Virus record (IMG/VR): IMGVR_UViG_3300025645_000055
Location: 1 to 64,000 of that record
DNA: 64,000 nucleotides
Reading direction: 5' to 3' (one strand)
From: a virus
Part shown: in pieces, positions 7,267 to 23,787 of the stretch
How positions within the stretch are numbered: the first letter of the stretch is position 1
How the letters are laid out: every line of letters starts with the position of its first letter
Made by a program: the position numbers and the translations under genes
The notes under the pieces: generated by a model
What the model was told of the DNA's origin: nothing
What the model saw: only the letters and a program-made list of their open reading frames with translations
Databases searched by the model: none

Positions 7267-7541
7267 AGGTATTATAAAAATAAATGAAGATAACTATCCC
7301 TTAAGTATTTTAAGGGATATTTATTTGTTCAATAAATAACAATAAATTAAATTTGAAAATGATGGTTGAAACTTTAAACCTTAGAACTAGGTATGCTGAG
7401 AAGAGAAGACATGGTATACATTCTAAAACACCTAGGGTGATTTGGAAAAGCAGAAGTAGACATATTGCTTAATGTTAATAAAACGTTAAAAGCTTTGTTT
7501 ATTTAAACTTAATACTTATATTTGTATATGAGTATTTATAT

Positions 7542-7613
7542 GACTTAGTGGCACTGGGCGTGTCTGGGCGGATTCTAAACCTGCTTATTGGGGTTCGAGT
7601 CCCCACTTCGTCA
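7542..7613 (+). tRNA. amber suppressor-like tRNA (anticodon CTA)
   Basis: D-arm GCAC-TGGGC-GTGT; anticodon arm GGGCGG-A TT CTA AA C-CTGCTT; T-arm TGGGG-TTCGAGT-CCCCA; acceptor with two mismatches; own promoter at 7517-7524. Confidence 0.72.
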
Positions 7614-7635
7614 CTAACATTAAAACAATTATATT

Positions 7636-8520
7636 ATGAAAACAACTGAATTTACTTAGGGCTACGTAGAGAGTCAAATGAAAGAAACCCTTCAAATGGA
7701 AGGTCTAACTGTGTACGAACATGGTGAGAGTGTGTGGGAATACACTAAAAAAATAATCTCTGGTGATTTTGACAAGATGAAATTACCCCTATGGTTCACT
7801 GAAAACCATAGATTTATCGTGAATAACTTACACGATATAAAAGATATCAAACAATACAATATATTTCACGATTGTGGGAAGCCGTTTTGTCTAGAAATAG
7901 ATGAAGATGGTAGACGACACTTTAAAGACCATGCAAAGGTATCCAAAGAAACCTGGATGAAGATTTCGGATAACCAAGTGGTTGGTGATTTAATAGGTTA
8001 TGATATGGCATTACATTCTGATACTGCCGATACCATTAAATCATATGATTGGGATATTAAGACTGCTTTTACCTTAATGGTAACTGCATTCGCAGAAATC
8101 CATTCAAACGCAGAGATGTTTGGTGGTATTGAATCTACATCATTTAAGATGAAGTGGAAGAAATTAGATAGGAGAGGTAAGATGCTCTTAAAGATGTTTG
8201 AGGAAGAAGATATTCATCCTTATTCTTATGTGATTGTAAGGAATGATATTCCAGAGAGTCATAAGACCGTTCAAGGCACACATGCTGCAATCGAACAGTT
8301 TAGAAAAAGTGATATCAATTTTCACCCATCAATTATTTATGTGGTGGTGAAGAACGAGTATAAACTCAAACAAGTTATTAAAAAATTAATTGAATCTGGT
8401 ATTAACGTTTCTATTTTTAGAGAACCGATGGAGCCTTATGATAATAGCATTACTGCTGTTTGTACTGAACCCATTACTGGTGACAAGAGGGAATACCTCA
8501 AAAACTTTATGTTATTATGA
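7636..8520 (+). CDS. HD-domain plus peptidyl-tRNA hydrolase 2 (PTH2)-like fusion; in-frame TAG at 7657-7659 (stop-free ORF 7678-8520)
   Basis: EH...FHDCGKP...HF.DHA (HD); YVIVRNDI...VQGTHAA...IFREP...ITAVCTEP (PTH2-like); ATG 7636 is in frame and follows an AT-rich leader. Confidence 0.7.
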
Positions 8521-9002
8521 AATACAATGAGATATATGGTGATATAGTCACCCTAGGAAAAGAAGGTAAATTTGATGTAATTGCACATGGGTGTAATTGC
8601 TTCTGTAGAATGGGGTCTGGCCTTGCCCCACAAATGGCAGATGCGTTTAAATGTAACGTTTTCCCATTAGAGCGACTAATATATAAAGGAGACATCAATA
8701 AGTTAGGTCAGATTGATTACCAAGAAGTGAAAGTTAATGATGGTAAATCTCTTATTGTTGTTAACGCATACTCACAATACGGATATGGTAACTACCATGG
8801 AAACGTAAACACACACCCAATAGACTATGAGGCTTTAACACTTTGTTTTAGAAAAATGAATCATAGGTTCGAAGGAAAACATATCGGATTACCAATGATA
8901 GGGGCTGGTCTAGCTGGTGGAGATTGGGATAGAATCAAGAATAGTATTCATAATGAGTTCACAAAATGTGACGTTACCGTAGTTATTTACAAGAAAATGT
9001 AA
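8517..9002 (+). CDS. macrodomain (ADP-ribose/Appr-1-p processing) protein
   Basis: GDI...IAHGCNC...MGSGLA...NAYSQ...LPMIGAGLAGGDW. Confidence 0.9.
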   Translation: MKYNEIYGDIVTLGKEGKFDVIAHGCNCFCRMGSGLAPQMADAFKCNVFPLERLIYKGDINKLGQIDYQEVKVNDGKSLIVVNAYSQYGYGNYHGNVNTHPIDYEALTLCFRKMNHRFEGKHIGLPMIGAGLAGGDWDRIKNSIHNEFTKCDVTVVIYKKM

Positions 9003-20497: not shown

Positions 20498-20572
20498 CGA
20501 GAGGTAGCTCAGTTTGCTCAGAGCGTCACCCATTGGGGGTGGAGGTCGTTGGTTCGAATCCAACCCTCTCGA
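20498..20572 (+). tRNA. tRNA with Pro-like body; anticodon ambiguous (loop CATTGGG)
   Basis: C1-G72, A73; TCACC-CATTGGG-GGTGG gives A33 and TTG in standard register, TGG if shifted by one. Confidence 0.7.
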
Positions 20573-20661
20573 CAAAAATTAAAATAAATTAACAAAAAAC
20601 GTAACTTTAATATAGTTACACATATTTAATAGAAAGGGATAAACCCTAAACAATAGAAATT

Positions 20662-20766
20662 ATGATGAATTATACGACAACATATCAAAAGCAGTATCCG
20701 CAAGGGGGGAAACCTAGTGGGCTGGACTTGTCGTGTATTTACTCTAAAGGTAAAACAGGTGTGTAA
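20662..20766 (+). CDS. putative leader peptide (34 aa)
   Basis: MMNYTTTYQKQYPQGGKPSGLDLSCIYSKGKTGV, followed by a terminator. Confidence 0.4.
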   Translation: MMNYTTTYQKQYPQGGKPSGLDLSCIYSKGKTGV

Positions 20767-20793
20767 ATAAATCAATTACATAACTTAAACGGT

Positions 20794-20829
20794 AAGCTCA
20801 GCTATAAAGAAATTTAGTTGGGCTTTTTT
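20794..20829 (+). terminator. rho-independent terminator inside the tRNA cluster
   Basis: AAGCTCAGCTA...TAGTTGGGCTT followed by TTTT. Confidence 0.7.
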
Positions 20830-20845
20830 CATGCCCAAATTTCAA

Positions 20846-20940
20846 CGGGTAATGTGCGAGTGGTTTAAGCAATCGGTCTTGGAAGCCGATGACAATTTCA
20901 AGAAGGTTATTGTCCGTAGGTTCGAATCCTACTTACCCGA
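20846..20940 (+). tRNA. tRNA with TGG (Pro) anticodon and long variable arm
   Basis: CGGGTAA/TTACCCG; TCGGT-CT TGG AA-GCCGA; V-arm GACAAT/ATTGTC. Confidence 0.8.
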
Positions 20941-20948
20941 CTAAACAT

Positions 20949-21021
20949 CGGGATGTATATCAATTGGTAGATTACGTGCTTTGGGAGTACGAGGTTGCTG
21001 GTTCGAGTCCAGTCATCCCGA
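20949..21021 (+). tRNA. tRNA-Pro(TGG)
   Basis: CGGGATG/CATCCCG; CGTGC-TT TGG GA-GTACG. Confidence 0.92.
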
Positions 21022-21031
21022 CAGAATGAAA

Positions 21032-21043
21032 GTTCATTGACAT
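21032..21043 (+). promoter_or_regulatory. boxA-like antitermination element
   Basis: GTTCATTGACAT resembles rRNA-operon boxA sequences. Confidence 0.55.
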
Positions 21044-21117
21044 GTTGGTTAAGTAAAATATAGAAGTCTAGGGAGCCATTGCTCTTAAAACGTCCAACCT
21101 AGAAACTTCTATAATAT

Positions 21118-21190
21118 TGGGATATGGTGTAATTGGTAACACGTCTGTTTTTGGTGCAGAAGAGTATGGGTTCGAGACCCGTTGTCCCAA
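21118..21190 (+). tRNA. tRNA-Gln(TTG)
   Basis: TGGGATA/TGTCCCA; TCTGT-TT TTG GT-GCAGA. Confidence 0.9.
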
Positions 21191-21197
21191 CTAATAT

Positions 21198-21270
21198 TGC
21201 CCTATGGTATAACGGTTAATACGTCTGGTTTTGAACCAGAAGATTGGGGGTTCGAATCCGTCTAGGGTAA
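21198..21270 (+). tRNA. tRNA-Gln(TTG)
   Basis: TGCCCTA/TAGGGTA; TCTGG-TT TTG AA-CCAGA. Confidence 0.88.
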
Positions 21271-21343
21271 CAATAAAGATATTTGGGAGACTGTTATTAA
21301 TTCATAGAACCTATTGCGAGTGGTATCATAGAATTAAAATTAT

Positions 21344-21416
21344 TGGGGTATGGTGTAATGTGTAACATTCAAGATTTTGGTCCTTGAGAGTGTCGGTTCG
21401 AGTCCGTCTACCCCAA
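21344..21416 (+). tRNA. tRNA-Gln(TTG)
   Basis: TGGGGTA/TACCCCA; CAAGA-TT TTG GT-CCTTG. Confidence 0.85.
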
Positions 21417-21417
21417 C

Positions 21418-21563
21418 TATATTGTGTGCGTAACTAAGGTATTTAGGAGTATACATAACAAGTAGTTGACTTAGTACTATCAATGAAAAGTATGTGGAAA
21501 ATGATACAGTTTGAACGGAATCCCATGTTGGGGAGAGATATGAGTGCAAGCCTCATCAATATA
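21418..21563 (+). ncRNA. enlarged tRNA-like element
   Basis: TATATTG/CAATATA closing stem with adjacent T-like arm ATGAG-TGCAAGC-CTCAT. Confidence 0.35.
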
Positions 21564-21567
21564 AATT

Positions 21568-21649
21568 GGGAGTATTGAGCAACTGGTTGCTCAGCAGACT
21601 GTAAATCTGTGGTCTTACGACATTGGGGGTTCGAATCCCTCTACTCCCA
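21568..21649 (+). tRNA. tRNA-Tyr(GTA)
   Basis: GGGAGTA/TACTCCC; GCAGA-CT GTA AA-TCTGT; V-arm. Confidence 0.92.
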
Positions 21650-21654
21650 CAATT

Positions 21655-21735
21655 GGGAACTAAAAGCCATTCGGATATGGCATCGGGACTGTAAATCTCG
21701 TCCTTCGGGGAGTGGTTCGAGTCCACTAGGTCCCA
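21655..21735 (+). tRNA. tRNA-Tyr(GTA), atypical D-arm
   Basis: CGGGA-CT GTA AA-TCTCG; V-arm CC-TTCG-GG; T-arm AGTGG/CCACT. Confidence 0.8.
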
Positions 21736-21808
21736 CAATTGGTCACAGATGAAACGACCAGTCTTCACAGAAAGACTTCCTCATGAGGGGATATAAATAA
21801 AGCTGCAT

Positions 21809-21878
21809 GGGTTGTGAAAGGATACTAGCCGAGGTTGTAACCCTCTAGCTTTGTAGGGTTCGAGTCCCTATCAGCCCA
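21809..21878 (+). tRNA. degenerate tRNA-Tyr(GTA)
   Basis: GGGTTG/CAGCCC; GAGG-TT GTA AC-CCTC; T-arm TAGGG/CCCTA; no clear D-stem. Confidence 0.55.
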
Positions 21879-21883
21879 CAACT

Positions 21884-22016
21884 TGACTATAATTGGTCGG
21901 CAATGTTAATGTAGTGTTTGAGAGCAAACCGTATAATCTCGGCAAACCATCATTAATGAATGAGTTATGTATGTTACATCATAACCTTTTGTGGGGTTCG
22001 ACTCCCCAATGGTCAA
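21884..22016 (+). ncRNA. enlarged tRNA-like RNA (133 nt)
   Basis: TGACTAT/ATGGTCA; T-arm TGGGG-TTCGACT-CCCCA; long arm GTTAATG/CATTAAT, GTTTG/CAAAC; V-arm GTTATG/CATAAC. Confidence 0.6.
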
Positions 22017-22056
22017 CACGCTAGGCTAGTAAGTGTCCAACACGCTAGGCTAATAT

Positions 22057-22128
22057 TCCTTCGTAACTCAGAGGCAGAGTACCGTGCTTTTAACACGGGA
22101 GTCGTGATATCGTAATTCACCGAGGGAA
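22057..22128 (+). tRNA. tRNA-Lys(TTT)
   Basis: TCCTTCG/CGAGGGA; CCGTG-CT TTT AA-CACGG; atypical T-loop. Confidence 0.82.
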
Positions 22129-22207
22129 CAAAAATTAGTAGCATATGCTCGATGAACGACTATGTACATGTAAGTAGGGATACTAGTCATGTTACTAATT
22201 TTAATTT

Positions 22208-22280
22208 GCACCCGAAGCTCAAGTGGACGGGCTTCCCGCTTTTAACGGGAAGGTTACGGGTTCGAGGCCCGTGGGGTGCA
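22208..22280 (+). tRNA. tRNA-Lys(TTT)
   Basis: GCACCC/GGGTGC; TCCCG-CT TTT AA-CGGGA. Confidence 0.88.
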
Positions 22281-22285
22281 CAAAT

Positions 22286-22369
22286 GCGATGTTAGTGTAA
22301 GTCAAAGATTCTAGATTAAACACGCAACCCATAGGGGTTGAGATGGGGGTTCAAGTCCTTTGCATCGCT
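22286..22369 (+). ncRNA. atypical tRNA-like RNA (Gly-like acceptor, enlarged D-loop, 6-nt anticodon loop)
   Basis: GCGATGT/GCATCGC-U73; CAACC-CATAGG-GGTTG. Confidence 0.55.
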
Positions 22370-22374
22370 CAAAT

Positions 22375-22468
22375 GATAGTATAGTGAAATATTCTGTGTA
22401 GACGTACATATAAAAATCACACCTTCTGCTTAGGTTGGAATAATTGGTATGAAATCCAATTACTATCT
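22375..22468 (+). ncRNA. degenerate tRNA-like element
   Basis: GATAGTA/TACTATC; T-like ATTGG-TATGAAAT-CCAAT; enlarged D region. Confidence 0.4.
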
Positions 22469-22473
22469 TAATT

Positions 22474-22544
22474 GCCGATATCGTATAACGGTATTACGTG
22501 CCCTTGGTAGGGGTGAAATCTCAGCTCGTTTCTGAGTATCGGCT
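22474..22544 (+). tRNA. tRNA-Thr(GGT)
   Basis: GCCGATA/TATCGGC; TGCCC-TT GGT AG-GGGTG; atypical T-loop CTCGTTT. Confidence 0.8.
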
Positions 22545-22703
22545 CTAAGTTTATTAATAAGTGGGTAAAACCTTGAGGCATCCCCCTCGGACTATGACGG
22601 CTTATATTTGACGATATAAGTGTTCAAGTTTCTGGTCAAGCAATGCACCAGGTTTGGTGGAATCACCTTACAAAAGCGAGGATTAATATTAATAGACTTA
22701 ACT

Positions 22704-22786
22704 GCGAATATCGTATAATGGAGGGGAAACCCGTATTATAGTGGCCTTCCAAGTCACGGATGAGAGTTCGATTCTCTCTATTCGCT
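22704..22786 (+). tRNA. tRNA-Gly(TCC) with GAAA hairpin in the D-loop
   Basis: GCGAATA/TATTCGC; GTGGC-CT TCC AA-GTCAC; GGG-GAAA-CCC insert. Confidence 0.85.
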
Positions 22787-22794
22787 CAATAATT

Positions 22795-22881
22795 GCCTCT
22801 ATAGCTCAGTTGGTTTGGCGAAAGCCTTAGAGCAGCCCCCTTTTAAGGGGCAGGTCGTAGGTTCGAATCCTACTGGGGGTA
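22795..22881 (+). tRNA. tRNA-Lys(TTT) with GAAA hairpin in the D-loop
   Basis: GCCCC-CT TTT AA-GGGGC; GGC-GAAA-GCC insert. Confidence 0.85.
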
Positions 22882-22940
22882 CTAAGTTAGTTATGACATT
22901 ATGATTTGAGGCTTAATCATCCTCTTTAACTAACTTTATT

Positions 22941-23011
22941 GCGAGATGTAGCTTAATGGCAAAGCATCGGCCTTCCAAGTCGAGGATGCGGTTCGACCCC
23001 GACATTTCGCA
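22941..23011 (+). tRNA. tRNA-Gly(TCC), 8/4-like acceptor/T stems
   Basis: GCGAGATG/CATTTCGC (8 bp); TCGGC-CT TCC AA-GTCGA; short T-stem. Confidence 0.8.
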
Positions 23012-23019
23012 CTAAAAAT

Positions 23020-23102
23020 GCCCCCCTAGTATAATGGAGACGAAAGTCGTATTACCTTGGATTTGTAACCCAAAGATATCAGTTCGATTCTGATGGGGGG
23101 CT
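23020..23102 (+). tRNA. tRNA-Thr(TGT) with GAAA hairpin in the D-loop
   Basis: GCCCCCC/GGGGGGC; TTGGA-TT TGT AA-CCCAA; GAC-GAAA-GTC insert. Confidence 0.85.
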
Positions 23103-23110
23103 CCATACCA

Positions 23111-23195
23111 GCCGATGTCGCATAGTGGTCTATTGCACTTGATTTGTAATCAAGAGAAAGAAATTTCATCGTCAGTTCGAATCTGACCATCGGCT
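23111..23195 (+). tRNA. tRNA-Thr(TGT) with long variable arm
   Basis: GCCGATG/CATCGGC; CTTGA-TT TGT AA-TCAAG; V-arm GAAA-GAAA-TTTC. Confidence 0.85.
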
Positions 23196-23210
23196 CACAT
23201 ATTTATTAGT

Positions 23211-23672
23211 ATGAAAAACTTAATCAACAAAATCTGGGCGTTCATCAAACTAATGCTACCTAATAGCTGGTTTCCAGAAGACGTAATAATTTACGCTATC
23301 GAAGATGATATGAAATCGTGGAAACTTATTGAAGTTCTCATTGTTAGAGAAATAAATAAGTATAGAATCGAAAATGGTCTTAAACCAGTATCTGGTGAGT
23401 TAAACACCAAGCTAGAAACAAAGATAAGAAGCGACTTTATGTCGGATGAAGAAAAACTATCCCACGATGGTTTTGGTGTATCATCAAGAAGACTTAAAGA
23501 TATGGGGTTTAAAAGTGTTGGTGAAATTATAGCCTATGGTTATACAAATGGTGGTGATGTGGTTCATGCTTGGAAAAATAGTCCAAGTCATAATCGTGTA
23601 TTACTTGGAAATTATAAATACCTGGGTGTTAGTAAAACTGATAGATATTATTGTGTAATATTTACCAGATAA
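23211..23672 (+). CDS. CAP (SCP) domain protein
   Basis: INKYR..NGL...LSHDG...GEIIAYG...WKNSPSH..VLL. Confidence 0.9.
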   Translation: MKNLINKIWAFIKLMLPNSWFPEDVIIYAIEDDMKSWKLIEVLIVREINKYRIENGLKPVSGELNTKLETKIRSDFMSDEEKLSHDGFGVSSRRLKDMGFKSVGEIIAYGYTNGGDVVHAWKNSPSHNRVLLGNYKYLGVSKTDRYYCVIFTR

Positions 23673-23674
23673 AT

Positions 23675-23787
23675 GCGAGTGTAGCTCAGTTGGTTAGAGC
23701 GTTATTTAAATCATGCGGGAGTAGCTCAATGGTAGAGCGATACGTTACCAACGTATAGGTTGAGGGTTCGAATCTGATTACTCGCCA
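23675..23787 (+). pseudogene. chimeric tRNA-Gly-like locus: orphan 5-prime half (23675-23701) plus tRNA body with ACC anticodon (23715-23787)
   Basis: ATACG-TT ACC AA-CGTAT; T-stem unpaired; 3-prime TACTCGC pairs better with upstream GCGAGTG. Confidence 0.6.

Follow-up and report, generated by a model that had tools for sequence, protein, structure and literature searches.

Early in-frame stop codons matched by phage suppressor tRNAs at HD- and PTH2-fold genes: a candidate gating module of large phages

Phages that reassign a stop codon with suppressor tRNAs of their own, reading TAG as Gln (code 15) or TGA as Trp (code 4), are described in the accessible portions of several reports (10.1101/2021.08.26.457843; PMC9523058; PMC7886860). 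Here we examined a 64,000-nucleotide stretch of viral DNA (the window), which is the first 64 kb of the 73,385-bp IMG/VR record IMGVR_UViG_3300025645_000055, a contig that CheckV estimates to hold about 20% of its genome. Within it, a tRNA-like gene with the anticodon CTA lies upstream of a gene for a protein with an HD-fold and a PTH2-fold domain, and that gene opens with an in-frame TAG at codon 8. Recoded phages, as far as those portions describe them, resemble this arrangement in that a phage tRNA(CUA) or tRNA(UCA) reads an in-frame stop in a standard-code host with Gln the likely residue, and for those stops, as for the one here, a regulatory role has been suggested. They differ in that their stops fall over Gln or Trp positions in many, mostly late genes and coding density under code 11 collapses, whereas the module considered here has a single stop, at codons 2–13, in two protein families, within otherwise standard-code regions and often with the tRNA gene adjacent.

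Dependence of synthesis on competition at an early in-frame stop is familiar from prfB, where an early in-frame UGA senses the activity of release factor 2 and is escaped by +1 frameshifting. There, however, the product itself reads the stop, whereas the escape in the module would be a dedicated suppressor tRNA. A different likeness is offered by the bar minigenes of phage lambda, two-codon open reading frames (ORFs) that load the cell with peptidyl-tRNA and are toxic to hosts limited in peptidyl-tRNA hydrolase (Pth), since both cases join an ORF of two to three codons ending in a stop to peptidyl-tRNA hydrolase biology. Yet bar is free-standing, whereas the mini-ORF of the module runs on in frame into a PTH2-like coding sequence and has a stop to which the phage suppressor is matched.

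The jumbo phages with ‘orphan’ suppressor tRNAs are the same kind of phage, with the same kind of tRNA, as the module. According to the available text on XacN1, its authors could not identify the genes targeted by its suppressor tRNAs (PMC5852040), and the available text on Atu_ph07 gives it a UCA suppressor (PMC6102473). Going by the former text, the search on XacN1 looked past terminal stops, whereas the candidate target considered here is the 5′ end of its ORF364. Feed-forward gating has also been engineered, such that, in the part of the report available, a stop-bearing gene is expressed only with a co-expressed suppressor tRNA (PMC7969014), and the module would be a natural, widely conserved counterpart. 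Our search of the full-text literature, exclusive of supplements, which may hold gene tables, returned no early stop in HD/PTH2-like phage genes tied to suppressor tRNAs. That phage suppressor tRNAs read stop codons is already known; what is new is the restriction to two families, the fixed 5′ stop, the adjacency of the tRNA gene and the spread across hosts.

Early in-frame stops across related loci and cultured phages

On comparative grounds, we consider it likely that the HD/PTH2-fold genes of these phages are translated only through the phage’s own suppressor tRNA, and that the window carries one copy of a conserved module; it is the homologous loci, not the window alone, that make the arrangement more than chance. 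Relatives were collected by alignment-based scans, a single-protein search of IMG/VR having returned no close relatives and a nucleotide search of the phage collection only short weak matches. The best 80 of 128 confirmed IMG/VR matches, the best 80 of 239 confirmed metagenome matches and the window gave 161 loci in 133 clusters at 95% nucleotide identity, of which 128 were testable, the other five being three partial matches, one cluster without flank and one without an upstream stop. Across these 128, the first in-frame stop 5′ of the conserved HD start was TAG in 105, TGA in 12 and TAA in 11, and in 102 an ATG stood at most 12 codons before the TAG, an arrangement that we call the gate and that most often took the form of ATG, one codon and TAG (47 loci). 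As a control we used 831 other ORFs of at least 100 residues from the same loci, whose first upstream in-frame stop was TAG in 163 cases, with the full pattern in 28, and whose terminal stops were TAA (426), TGA (306) and TAG (99). The gate TAG sat at codons 2–13 in 102 of 105 loci, mostly at codon 3, and the 102 gated HD ORFs themselves ended in TAA (70), TGA (27) or TAG (4), with one running off its contig. An A directly after TAG is a context that favours amber suppression, and A followed the gate TAG in 73 of 105 loci.

Separately encoded PTH2-like genes possess gates of their own: 63 of 70 open with ATG, one to eight codons and TAG, including genes at loci whose HD gene has no gate, and in nine PTH2-HD fusions with an N-terminal PTH2-like domain the TAG is found at the PTH2 end. 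In the loci compared, then, the gate goes with the start of the ORF and not with a particular domain, and the conserved early in-frame stop expected of an autoregulatory sensor is present in both families. Counting every pattern-bearing ORF in the loci, on either strand and with 90 or more codons following the TAG, we obtained 223, of which 165 encode HD, PTH2-like or both domains. The 58 others include four that are canonical-type PTH2 genes by eye (L029, L058, L060 and L126), and no recurrent third gated family was recognisable among them. One relative, present as an IMG/VR and metagenome twin (L003/L084), has an HD ORF that ends in TAG at about 4492 and continues in frame into a PTH2-like domain; its ORF coverage rises from 0.43 to 0.87 with TAG read, and it seems generally TAG-recoded.

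The tRNA able to read the stop is by far the commonest tRNA near it. This tRNA(cta) made up 48 of the 245 tRNAs lying within 4 kb, was present in 39 of the 80 IMG/VR loci and, in every copy listed, lay on the gene’s strand; 58 unique tRNAs of related loci carry the CTA anticodon. The sequence-only reading of the window had proposed that homologous phage loci be compared for a conserved CUA tRNA plus early TAG, and the comparison came out in its favour. In two loci (L013 and L073) the gate at the same place is built with TGA, and each of the two underlying records has two tRNA(tca), with no tRNA(cta) among the readable tRNAs (38 of 51 and 34 of 44, respectively); a further locus, on a short contig, has a gate with TAA (L090). 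Of 102 loci, 56 had a four-base motif resembling a Shine-Dalgarno (SD) sequence 4–18 nucleotides 5′ of the first ATG and 6 had one ahead of the first internal ATG, against rates of 12% for random background and 27% for other ORFs. From the TAG to the internal Met, mean entropies at codon positions 1, 2 and 3 are 1.32, 0.89 and 1.57 (n = 32) and 1.35, 0.81 and 1.52 (n = 22), which is a coding pattern, and Leu, Ile and Asp are kept there through many synonymous codons. To summarize, comparison of the loci reveals conservation of the early stop, its frame, the matching anticodon and the position of the ribosome-binding motif, with coding-type evolution after the stop.

The residue inserted at the UAG is probably Gln, because Gln occupies this position in four relatives with a sense codon there. 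Database relatives of the window protein numbered 295 at E ≤ 0.001 among 493 candidates, most of them called at 280 residues, and four (P0005, P0012, P0017 and P0026) were called 12–14 residues longer, with extra N-termini that align with the window leader; these four were all the cases with a sense codon among the 16 N-termini read. A sense codon in homologues had been named in advance as a sign of sequencing error or drift, and close relatives without the TAG turned out to have Gln there with the start not shifted. Modelled from the first ATG with the TAG as Gln, together with 34 similarly read relatives, the protein reached a predicted local distance difference test score (pLDDT) of 92.7, with a confident helix at residues 8–17 whose first residue is the TAG-encoded one.

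In many related phages, two different tRNA(cta) genes lie next to each other (for example L006 5035–5189, L014 4847–5001, L031 5455–5611, L118 5323–5610 and L141 5451–5775), which gives two suppressors for one codon. One type has T first and ...A-G before the CCA position, the other G first and an A discriminator; the T-first type recalls the U1-A72/G73 identity set of tRNA-Gln.

Among cultured phages, protein searches placed HD relatives in 30 records of the phage collection and matches to the separate PTH2-like protein in 236, of which 206 are mycobacteriophages, and hosts as different as Mycobacterium, Tenacibaculum and several proteobacterial genera are named. ORF364 of XacN1, homologous to the window protein (43% identity), starts ATG AAG TAG in frame, with AGAGGA 8 nucleotides before the first ATG; the two tRNA-Sup genes of this phage lie far from it, in the terminal repeat, and its 5′ gate is a candidate target of these tRNAs. 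Gates were also found at the PTH2 end of a PTH2-HD fusion in Tenacibaculum phage pT24, at the PTH2-like gene of Acinetobacter phage ME3 (with an annotated CTA tRNA about 450 nucleotides upstream), at both genes of Ralstonia phage RsoM2USA, and at the PTH2-like genes of Salmonella phage Arash and Cronobacter phage GAP32. Arash has a nearby tRNA(cta) by ARAGORN (L199 2464–2538) that GenBank labels tRNA-Phe. The mycobacteriophages Bxz1 and Myrna, whose PTH2-like proteins are gp154 and gp84, respectively, have a start codon, TAG and GTG in succession, and a tRNA(cta) 130–300 nucleotides downstream. The ARAGORN calls there are L196 1666–1737 in Myrna and L195 1869–1941 in Bxz1, labelled tRNA-Ser and ‘tRNA-OTHER’, respectively, in GenBank.

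The HD homolog of GAP32 (L193, JN882285.1 at about 290500–291027) lacks an early gate, carrying instead an in-frame TAG at about codon 43, and is broken up into several small ORFs in GenBank; in the other phages of its group (BF, CBB, fHe-Yen9-03/04 and pEa_SNUABM_x) two or three ORFs likewise lie under the match. All GenBank homologs examined were annotated as starting after the stop, or were split or truncated.

The window locus, its tRNA-like gene and its protein

Features of the window locus are collected in Table 1. Its ATG at 7636 is in frame with the ORF, as had been read from the sequence: AAA ACA ACT GAA TTT ACT follow, then the TAG, six more codons and the internal ATG 7678, which is where gene callers place the start of a protein of 280 amino acids (aa). 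The closest comparison is with L081, a metagenomic scaffold whose protein is 86% identical to that of the window and whose tRNA(cta), called by default ARAGORN and scoring 54.5 bits with Rfam, lies 65 nucleotides 5′ of the gene. Because L081 keeps the same 42-nucleotide leader, TAG included, behind a good tRNA(CUA), the TAG in the window is on this comparison neither a sequencing error nor a recently arisen nonsense mutation, and the site of the tRNA is likewise conserved. The two loci hardly differ in the promoter-like motif, the tRNA 3′ trailer, the leader and the first codons, whereas the tRNA bodies, aligned by eye, agree at only about 45 of 73 positions and are far more diverged than these flanks. 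The same alignment by eye reveals paired changes at 2:71, 28:42 and 50:64, and the anticodon loops are identical except at position 38.

Table 1. Coordinates of features at the gated locus of the window
Feature	Position	Strand	Description
Terminator-like hairpin	7295..7319	+	11-pair stem then T-rich tail, after the upstream gene (stop 7266)
Promoter-like motif TATATTTG	7517..7524	+	18 nucleotides 5′ of the tRNA; identical in L081
tRNA-like gene, anticodon CTA (7575–7577)	7542..7614	+	Amber-suppressor type; degenerate copy
Gate	7636..7659	+	ATG, six sense codons, in-frame TAG (7657–7659); identical in L081
Full ORF with TAG read	7636..8520	+	294 residues; HD plus PTH2-fold protein
HD-fold domain	7678..8202	+	Residues 1–175 of the 280-aa form; HDCGKP motif
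PTH2-fold domain	8209..8517	+	Residues 178–280 of the 280-aa form
Macrodomain gene	8517..9002	+	Start ATG overlaps the HD-PTH2 stop TGA (ATGA)

The anticodon of the tRNA-like gene is CTA, as the sequence-only reading had it, and so of the amber-suppressor type. ARAGORN with -ps95 calls the gene as a 73-nucleotide tRNA(cta), with a seven-nucleotide anticodon loop (TTCTAAA) that has T33 and a purine at 37, a T-arm (TGGGG-TTCGAGT-CCCCA) with a five-bp stem and canonical T-loop, and a G+C content of 56% in a region of 34%. A loose resemblance to tRNA-Pyl, which has a short D-loop, a 6-bp anticodon stem and no canonical T-loop, had also been suggested; this is not supported, as the T-loop here is canonical and the short D-loop is absent from the L081 ortholog, whose D-loop has 9 nucleotides. 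The ARAGORN label ‘tRNA-Pyl’ is simply its name for any cta anticodon. The sequence-only reading had seen no pyl genes in the window, and TIGR02367 (the PylS C-terminal domain) was unmatched in the 73-kb contig, about 20% of the genome. No second CUA tRNA was found on the contig, relaxed thresholds included, and there was no ribozyme family among the six Rfam matches in 7300–7800 at E ≤ 10, those beside the tRNA being SCARNA7, CRISPR repeat, AsxR, mascRNA and Bacilli-1. Of the self-contained readthrough pair proposed for this locus, the pairing of a CUA tRNA with an early TAG is strongly supported by the comparison, whereas the tRNA copy of the window itself is degenerate and perhaps weak, so that the switch might not work in this phage.

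Modelled from the internal ATG, the 280-aa form reached pLDDT 90.4 and possesses two domains. The C-terminal one has a PTH2 fold, with a VIA Z of 12.4 and a root-mean-square deviation of 2.5 over 103 residues to 1wn2, a Foldseek E of 1.4e-4 and TM score of 0.68 to the archaeal peptidyl-tRNA hydrolase 3erj, and further hits to 2zv3, 1q7s and 1xty; a profile search of PDB sequences reached 2zv3 at E 0.037. The N-terminal one has an HD fold, its best match being residues 256–448 of 3wfo_A (Z 11.9), an entry titled ‘tRNA processing enzyme’ whose molecule is named poly A polymerase. It also matches GppA/PPX (Z about 10; GppA 10.2), PgpH (9.1), the HD domain of bacterial GlyRS (8.3–9.0) and further HD phosphodiesterases, Z values of this range being only moderately specific for helical domains. 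The His...His-Asp...Asp metal-ligand pattern of HD proteins is present: H15, H64-D65, H85, D109, H113, E140 and H142 are invariant in 29 sequences, and H78-D79, H99, D123 and H127 (extended numbering) in 35 distant ones. The HD domain matches phrog_14850 (E 2e-61), and the PHROGs families of both domains are of unknown function. On these modelled folds, we liken the HD domain to that of a tRNA nucleotidyltransferase-type enzyme and the other domain to peptidyl-tRNA hydrolase, and because both are folds of enzymes of the tRNA 3′ end, we infer that the products may act on tRNA 3′ ends, possibly on that of the suppressor itself.

Around these genes, the hairpin upstream of the locus likely marks the start of a new transcription unit, terminator-like sites in the region numbering 4 against 0.6 expected. 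Between it and the tRNA lies a small basic ORF of 37 codons (7361–7474), with a counterpart of similar residues at the same place in L081. The promoter motif that had been reported at 7517–7524 is indeed there, and TATATTTG is strand-biased across the window, with 25 copies on the + strand, where all genes lie, versus 5 on the − strand; the generic pattern TANNTTTG was not enriched in the window (102 found, 96.8 expected). Copies of TATATTTG on the + strand (among them 406, 2865, 9302, 11252, 26209, 31117, 43683, 45827, 46382, 49791 and 54504) are frequently a few tens of bases 5′ of a start codon, consistent with a promoter element, and we take the motif to resemble the Bacteroidota -7 element TAnnTTTG. 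The macrodomain gene that overlaps the HD-PTH2 stop matches 2afc and 2fg1 at E 2e-8, 5e3b (‘Macrodomain protein’), phrog_335 (‘phosphatase’) and, weakly, OARD1/C6orf130. We rejected it as a member of the conserved module because it is common to the window and L081 only, adjoining the gene in no other locus among 160.

The window also contains tRNA arrays at 51–2807 and 20498–23786, with 27 genes by default ARAGORN and many repeated isoacceptors, including 4 Gln(ttg), 4 Asp(gtc), 3 Phe(gaa), 3 Glu(ttc) and 3 Gly as well as 2 Tyr, 2 Lys, 2 Pro and 2 Ala tRNAs. Relaxed ARAGORN thresholds give more odd tRNA-like calls in the window, of which one Pro call (20846–20941) is 96 nucleotides long.

Alternative readings of the early stop

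Several observations weigh against translation only through a suppressor tRNA. The gate pattern is missing from the HD genes of 26 of 128 loci, 33 of 63 TAG-gated loci with full flanks have no tRNA(cta) within 4 kb, and no CUA tRNA was seen in the fragmentary gated records behind L018, L022 and L037. At the window locus, the internal ATG 7678 could yield the 280-aa protein without any readthrough, and the tRNA-like gene is a poor one: it scores 21.1 bits (E 0.07) with Rfam RF00005, below the gathering score of 29, is not among the 27 window tRNAs called by default ARAGORN, has two adjacent acceptor-stem mismatches and a 5-nucleotide D-loop, and has a minimum-free-energy fold no better than those of shuffled sequences (z −1.17). 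Of the protein domains, the second scores 16.6 bits (E 0.009) with Pfam PF01981 (PTH2), below the cut-off of 23, and no Pfam HD family matches the window protein at E ≤ 0.01.

Reading ATG-x-TAG as a mini upstream ORF, with the protein starting after the TAG or at an internal Met, whether by re-initiation or by independent initiation, and the suppressor irrelevant, would take care of the stop differently, and we regard it as quite unlikely. It is favoured by Bxz1 and Myrna, where the SD sequence lies 1 nucleotide before the first start and 7 nucleotides before the GTG directly after the TAG, and where a start after the TAG is, on sequence, at least as plausible; across the 102 gated loci, however, SD-like motifs favour the first ATG over the internal one by 56 to 6. 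Summed over the codon table, an NTN codon follows the TAG in 68 of 105 cases (ATT alone 38), and some of these are start-capable, but the codons in the other 37 (AAC, AAT, GGC, AGC and others) are not. A conserved Met does stand 6–10 codons downstream in most loci, and gene callers and GenBank annotators put starts there, yet the residues from the TAG to this Met show protein-level conservation, and in 102 of 128 loci the stop shares the frame of the gene. Nor does a mini-ORF sit well with the identity of the stop, which is TAG though TAA is the commonest terminal stop of neighbouring ORFs (426 of 831), and which becomes TGA where the phage has tRNA(tca).

A general TAG-to-Gln recoding (code 15) of part of the genome, which would make the gate TAG an ordinary Gln codon, would fit the Gln found at this position in relatives, and L003, with its rise in coverage, and L019, L030 and L035, with several in-frame TAGs, speak for it among the loci; we nevertheless judge it very unlikely. 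On the window’s contig, TAG is a working stop. The window is AT-rich with long ORFs exclusively on the + strand, and the 101 long ORFs of the 73 kb end in TAA (77), TGA (13) or TAG (11), TAG being confirmed at each of the four genes (978, 7266, 46774 and 54001) from which the sequence-only reading had concluded that the genome is not globally recoded. That conclusion stands for the 73 kb seen, an estimated 20% of the genome. The strong preference for TAA, which counts in favour of recoding, is shared, according to the accessible part of a preprint (10.1101/2021.08.26.457843), with relatives of recoded phages. Code 15 would appear as many in-frame TAGs with coding density restored when they are read, but the HD-PTH2 gene stands alone in this respect, no other ORF of the contig convincingly requiring TAG readthrough. 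Reading TAG lifts ORF coverage of the locus from 0.78 to 0.83, and reading TGA likewise brings it to 0.83, in a test that discriminates weakly on 8-kb loci and in which L003 alone stands out. Across the family, the TAG is single and at codons 2–13 in 102 of 105 loci, with a second TAG in only 4 of 102 HD ORFs, and for XacN1 the authors, in the available text, could identify no further targets of the two CUA tRNAs. We also sought additional gated genes on the contig; gate-like patterns on its + strand numbered 4 with TAG, 8 with TAA and 2 with TGA, and further genes were not accepted because the TAG pattern is no commoner than the TAA pattern.

For the window phage itself, the module could instead be decaying, with the tRNA a pseudogene, the TAG unread, and the gene either dead or expressed as the 280-aa form from 7678. 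The tRNA score far below that of its L081 ortholog, the adjacent acceptor mismatches, the shortened D-loop and the lack of a second CUA tRNA on the contig all point this way. Set against them, the tRNA is still G+C-rich, it keeps its anticodon loop and T-arm, its differences from the L081 copy are partly paired (by eye), and the ORF is intact, close to that of L081 and with all family-invariant residues present; moreover, 80% of the genome is unseen. On balance we consider decay unlikely.

Proposed mechanism and significance

We interpret the module as a suppressor tRNA (here CUA) together with HD-fold and PTH2-fold genes, fused or separate, in which each ORF begins with a start codon and, a few sense codons later, reaches a stop that matches the tRNA. 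In the window, ribosomes would initiate at the first ATG, release factor 1 and charged phage tRNA(CUA) would compete at the UAG of codon 8, and the 294-residue enzyme would be made only when the tRNA wins, so that the amount of enzyme would track the activity of the phage suppressor tRNA. Because only a di- to octapeptide would be released, the early stop would make failure cheap. In the window phage the gate may have lapsed, may work weakly, or may depend on another tRNA copy encoded in the 80% of the genome not seen.

What the gate is for may be approached by analogy. A gene carrying a signal that its product influences is usually autoregulated, as with prfB, and we therefore favour, and infer from this analogy, a feedback circuit acting on the suppressor tRNA or on UAG decoding, the direction of which could be either way. 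The gate might alternatively serve as a timing or containment lock, the enzyme being wanted only once the phage tRNAs are expressed, or, as the sequence-only reading suggested, as a sensor of termination failure; that reading also offered that the enzyme might mature or recycle the tRNA. A more specific and more doubtful version, which we put forward tentatively, is a closed autoregulatory circuit in which the enzymes deacylate, recycle or repair the 3′ end of the suppressor and are themselves made only via that tRNA.

If translation through the suppressor holds, the module would give the suppressor tRNAs of standard-code large phages a concrete conserved target, would represent natural gene-specific control by a virus-encoded suppressor tRNA, and would link two uncharacterised phage protein families to stop-codon decoding. 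Because cultured phages such as Bxz1 and Myrna carry it and grow on a laboratory host (M. smegmatis), it is directly testable, and pairs of tRNA and leader could be compact natural parts for suppressor-gated expression. The module also suggests a stepping stone towards genome-wide stop-codon reassignment. Were the closed circuit true, a phage would hold stop suppression at a set level or flip a switch, the ‘orphan’ suppressor tRNAs kept by standard-code jumbo phages and cluster C mycobacteriophages would be explained, and full TAG or TGA recoding of phage genomes would have evolved repeatedly out of the module as a resident machinery.

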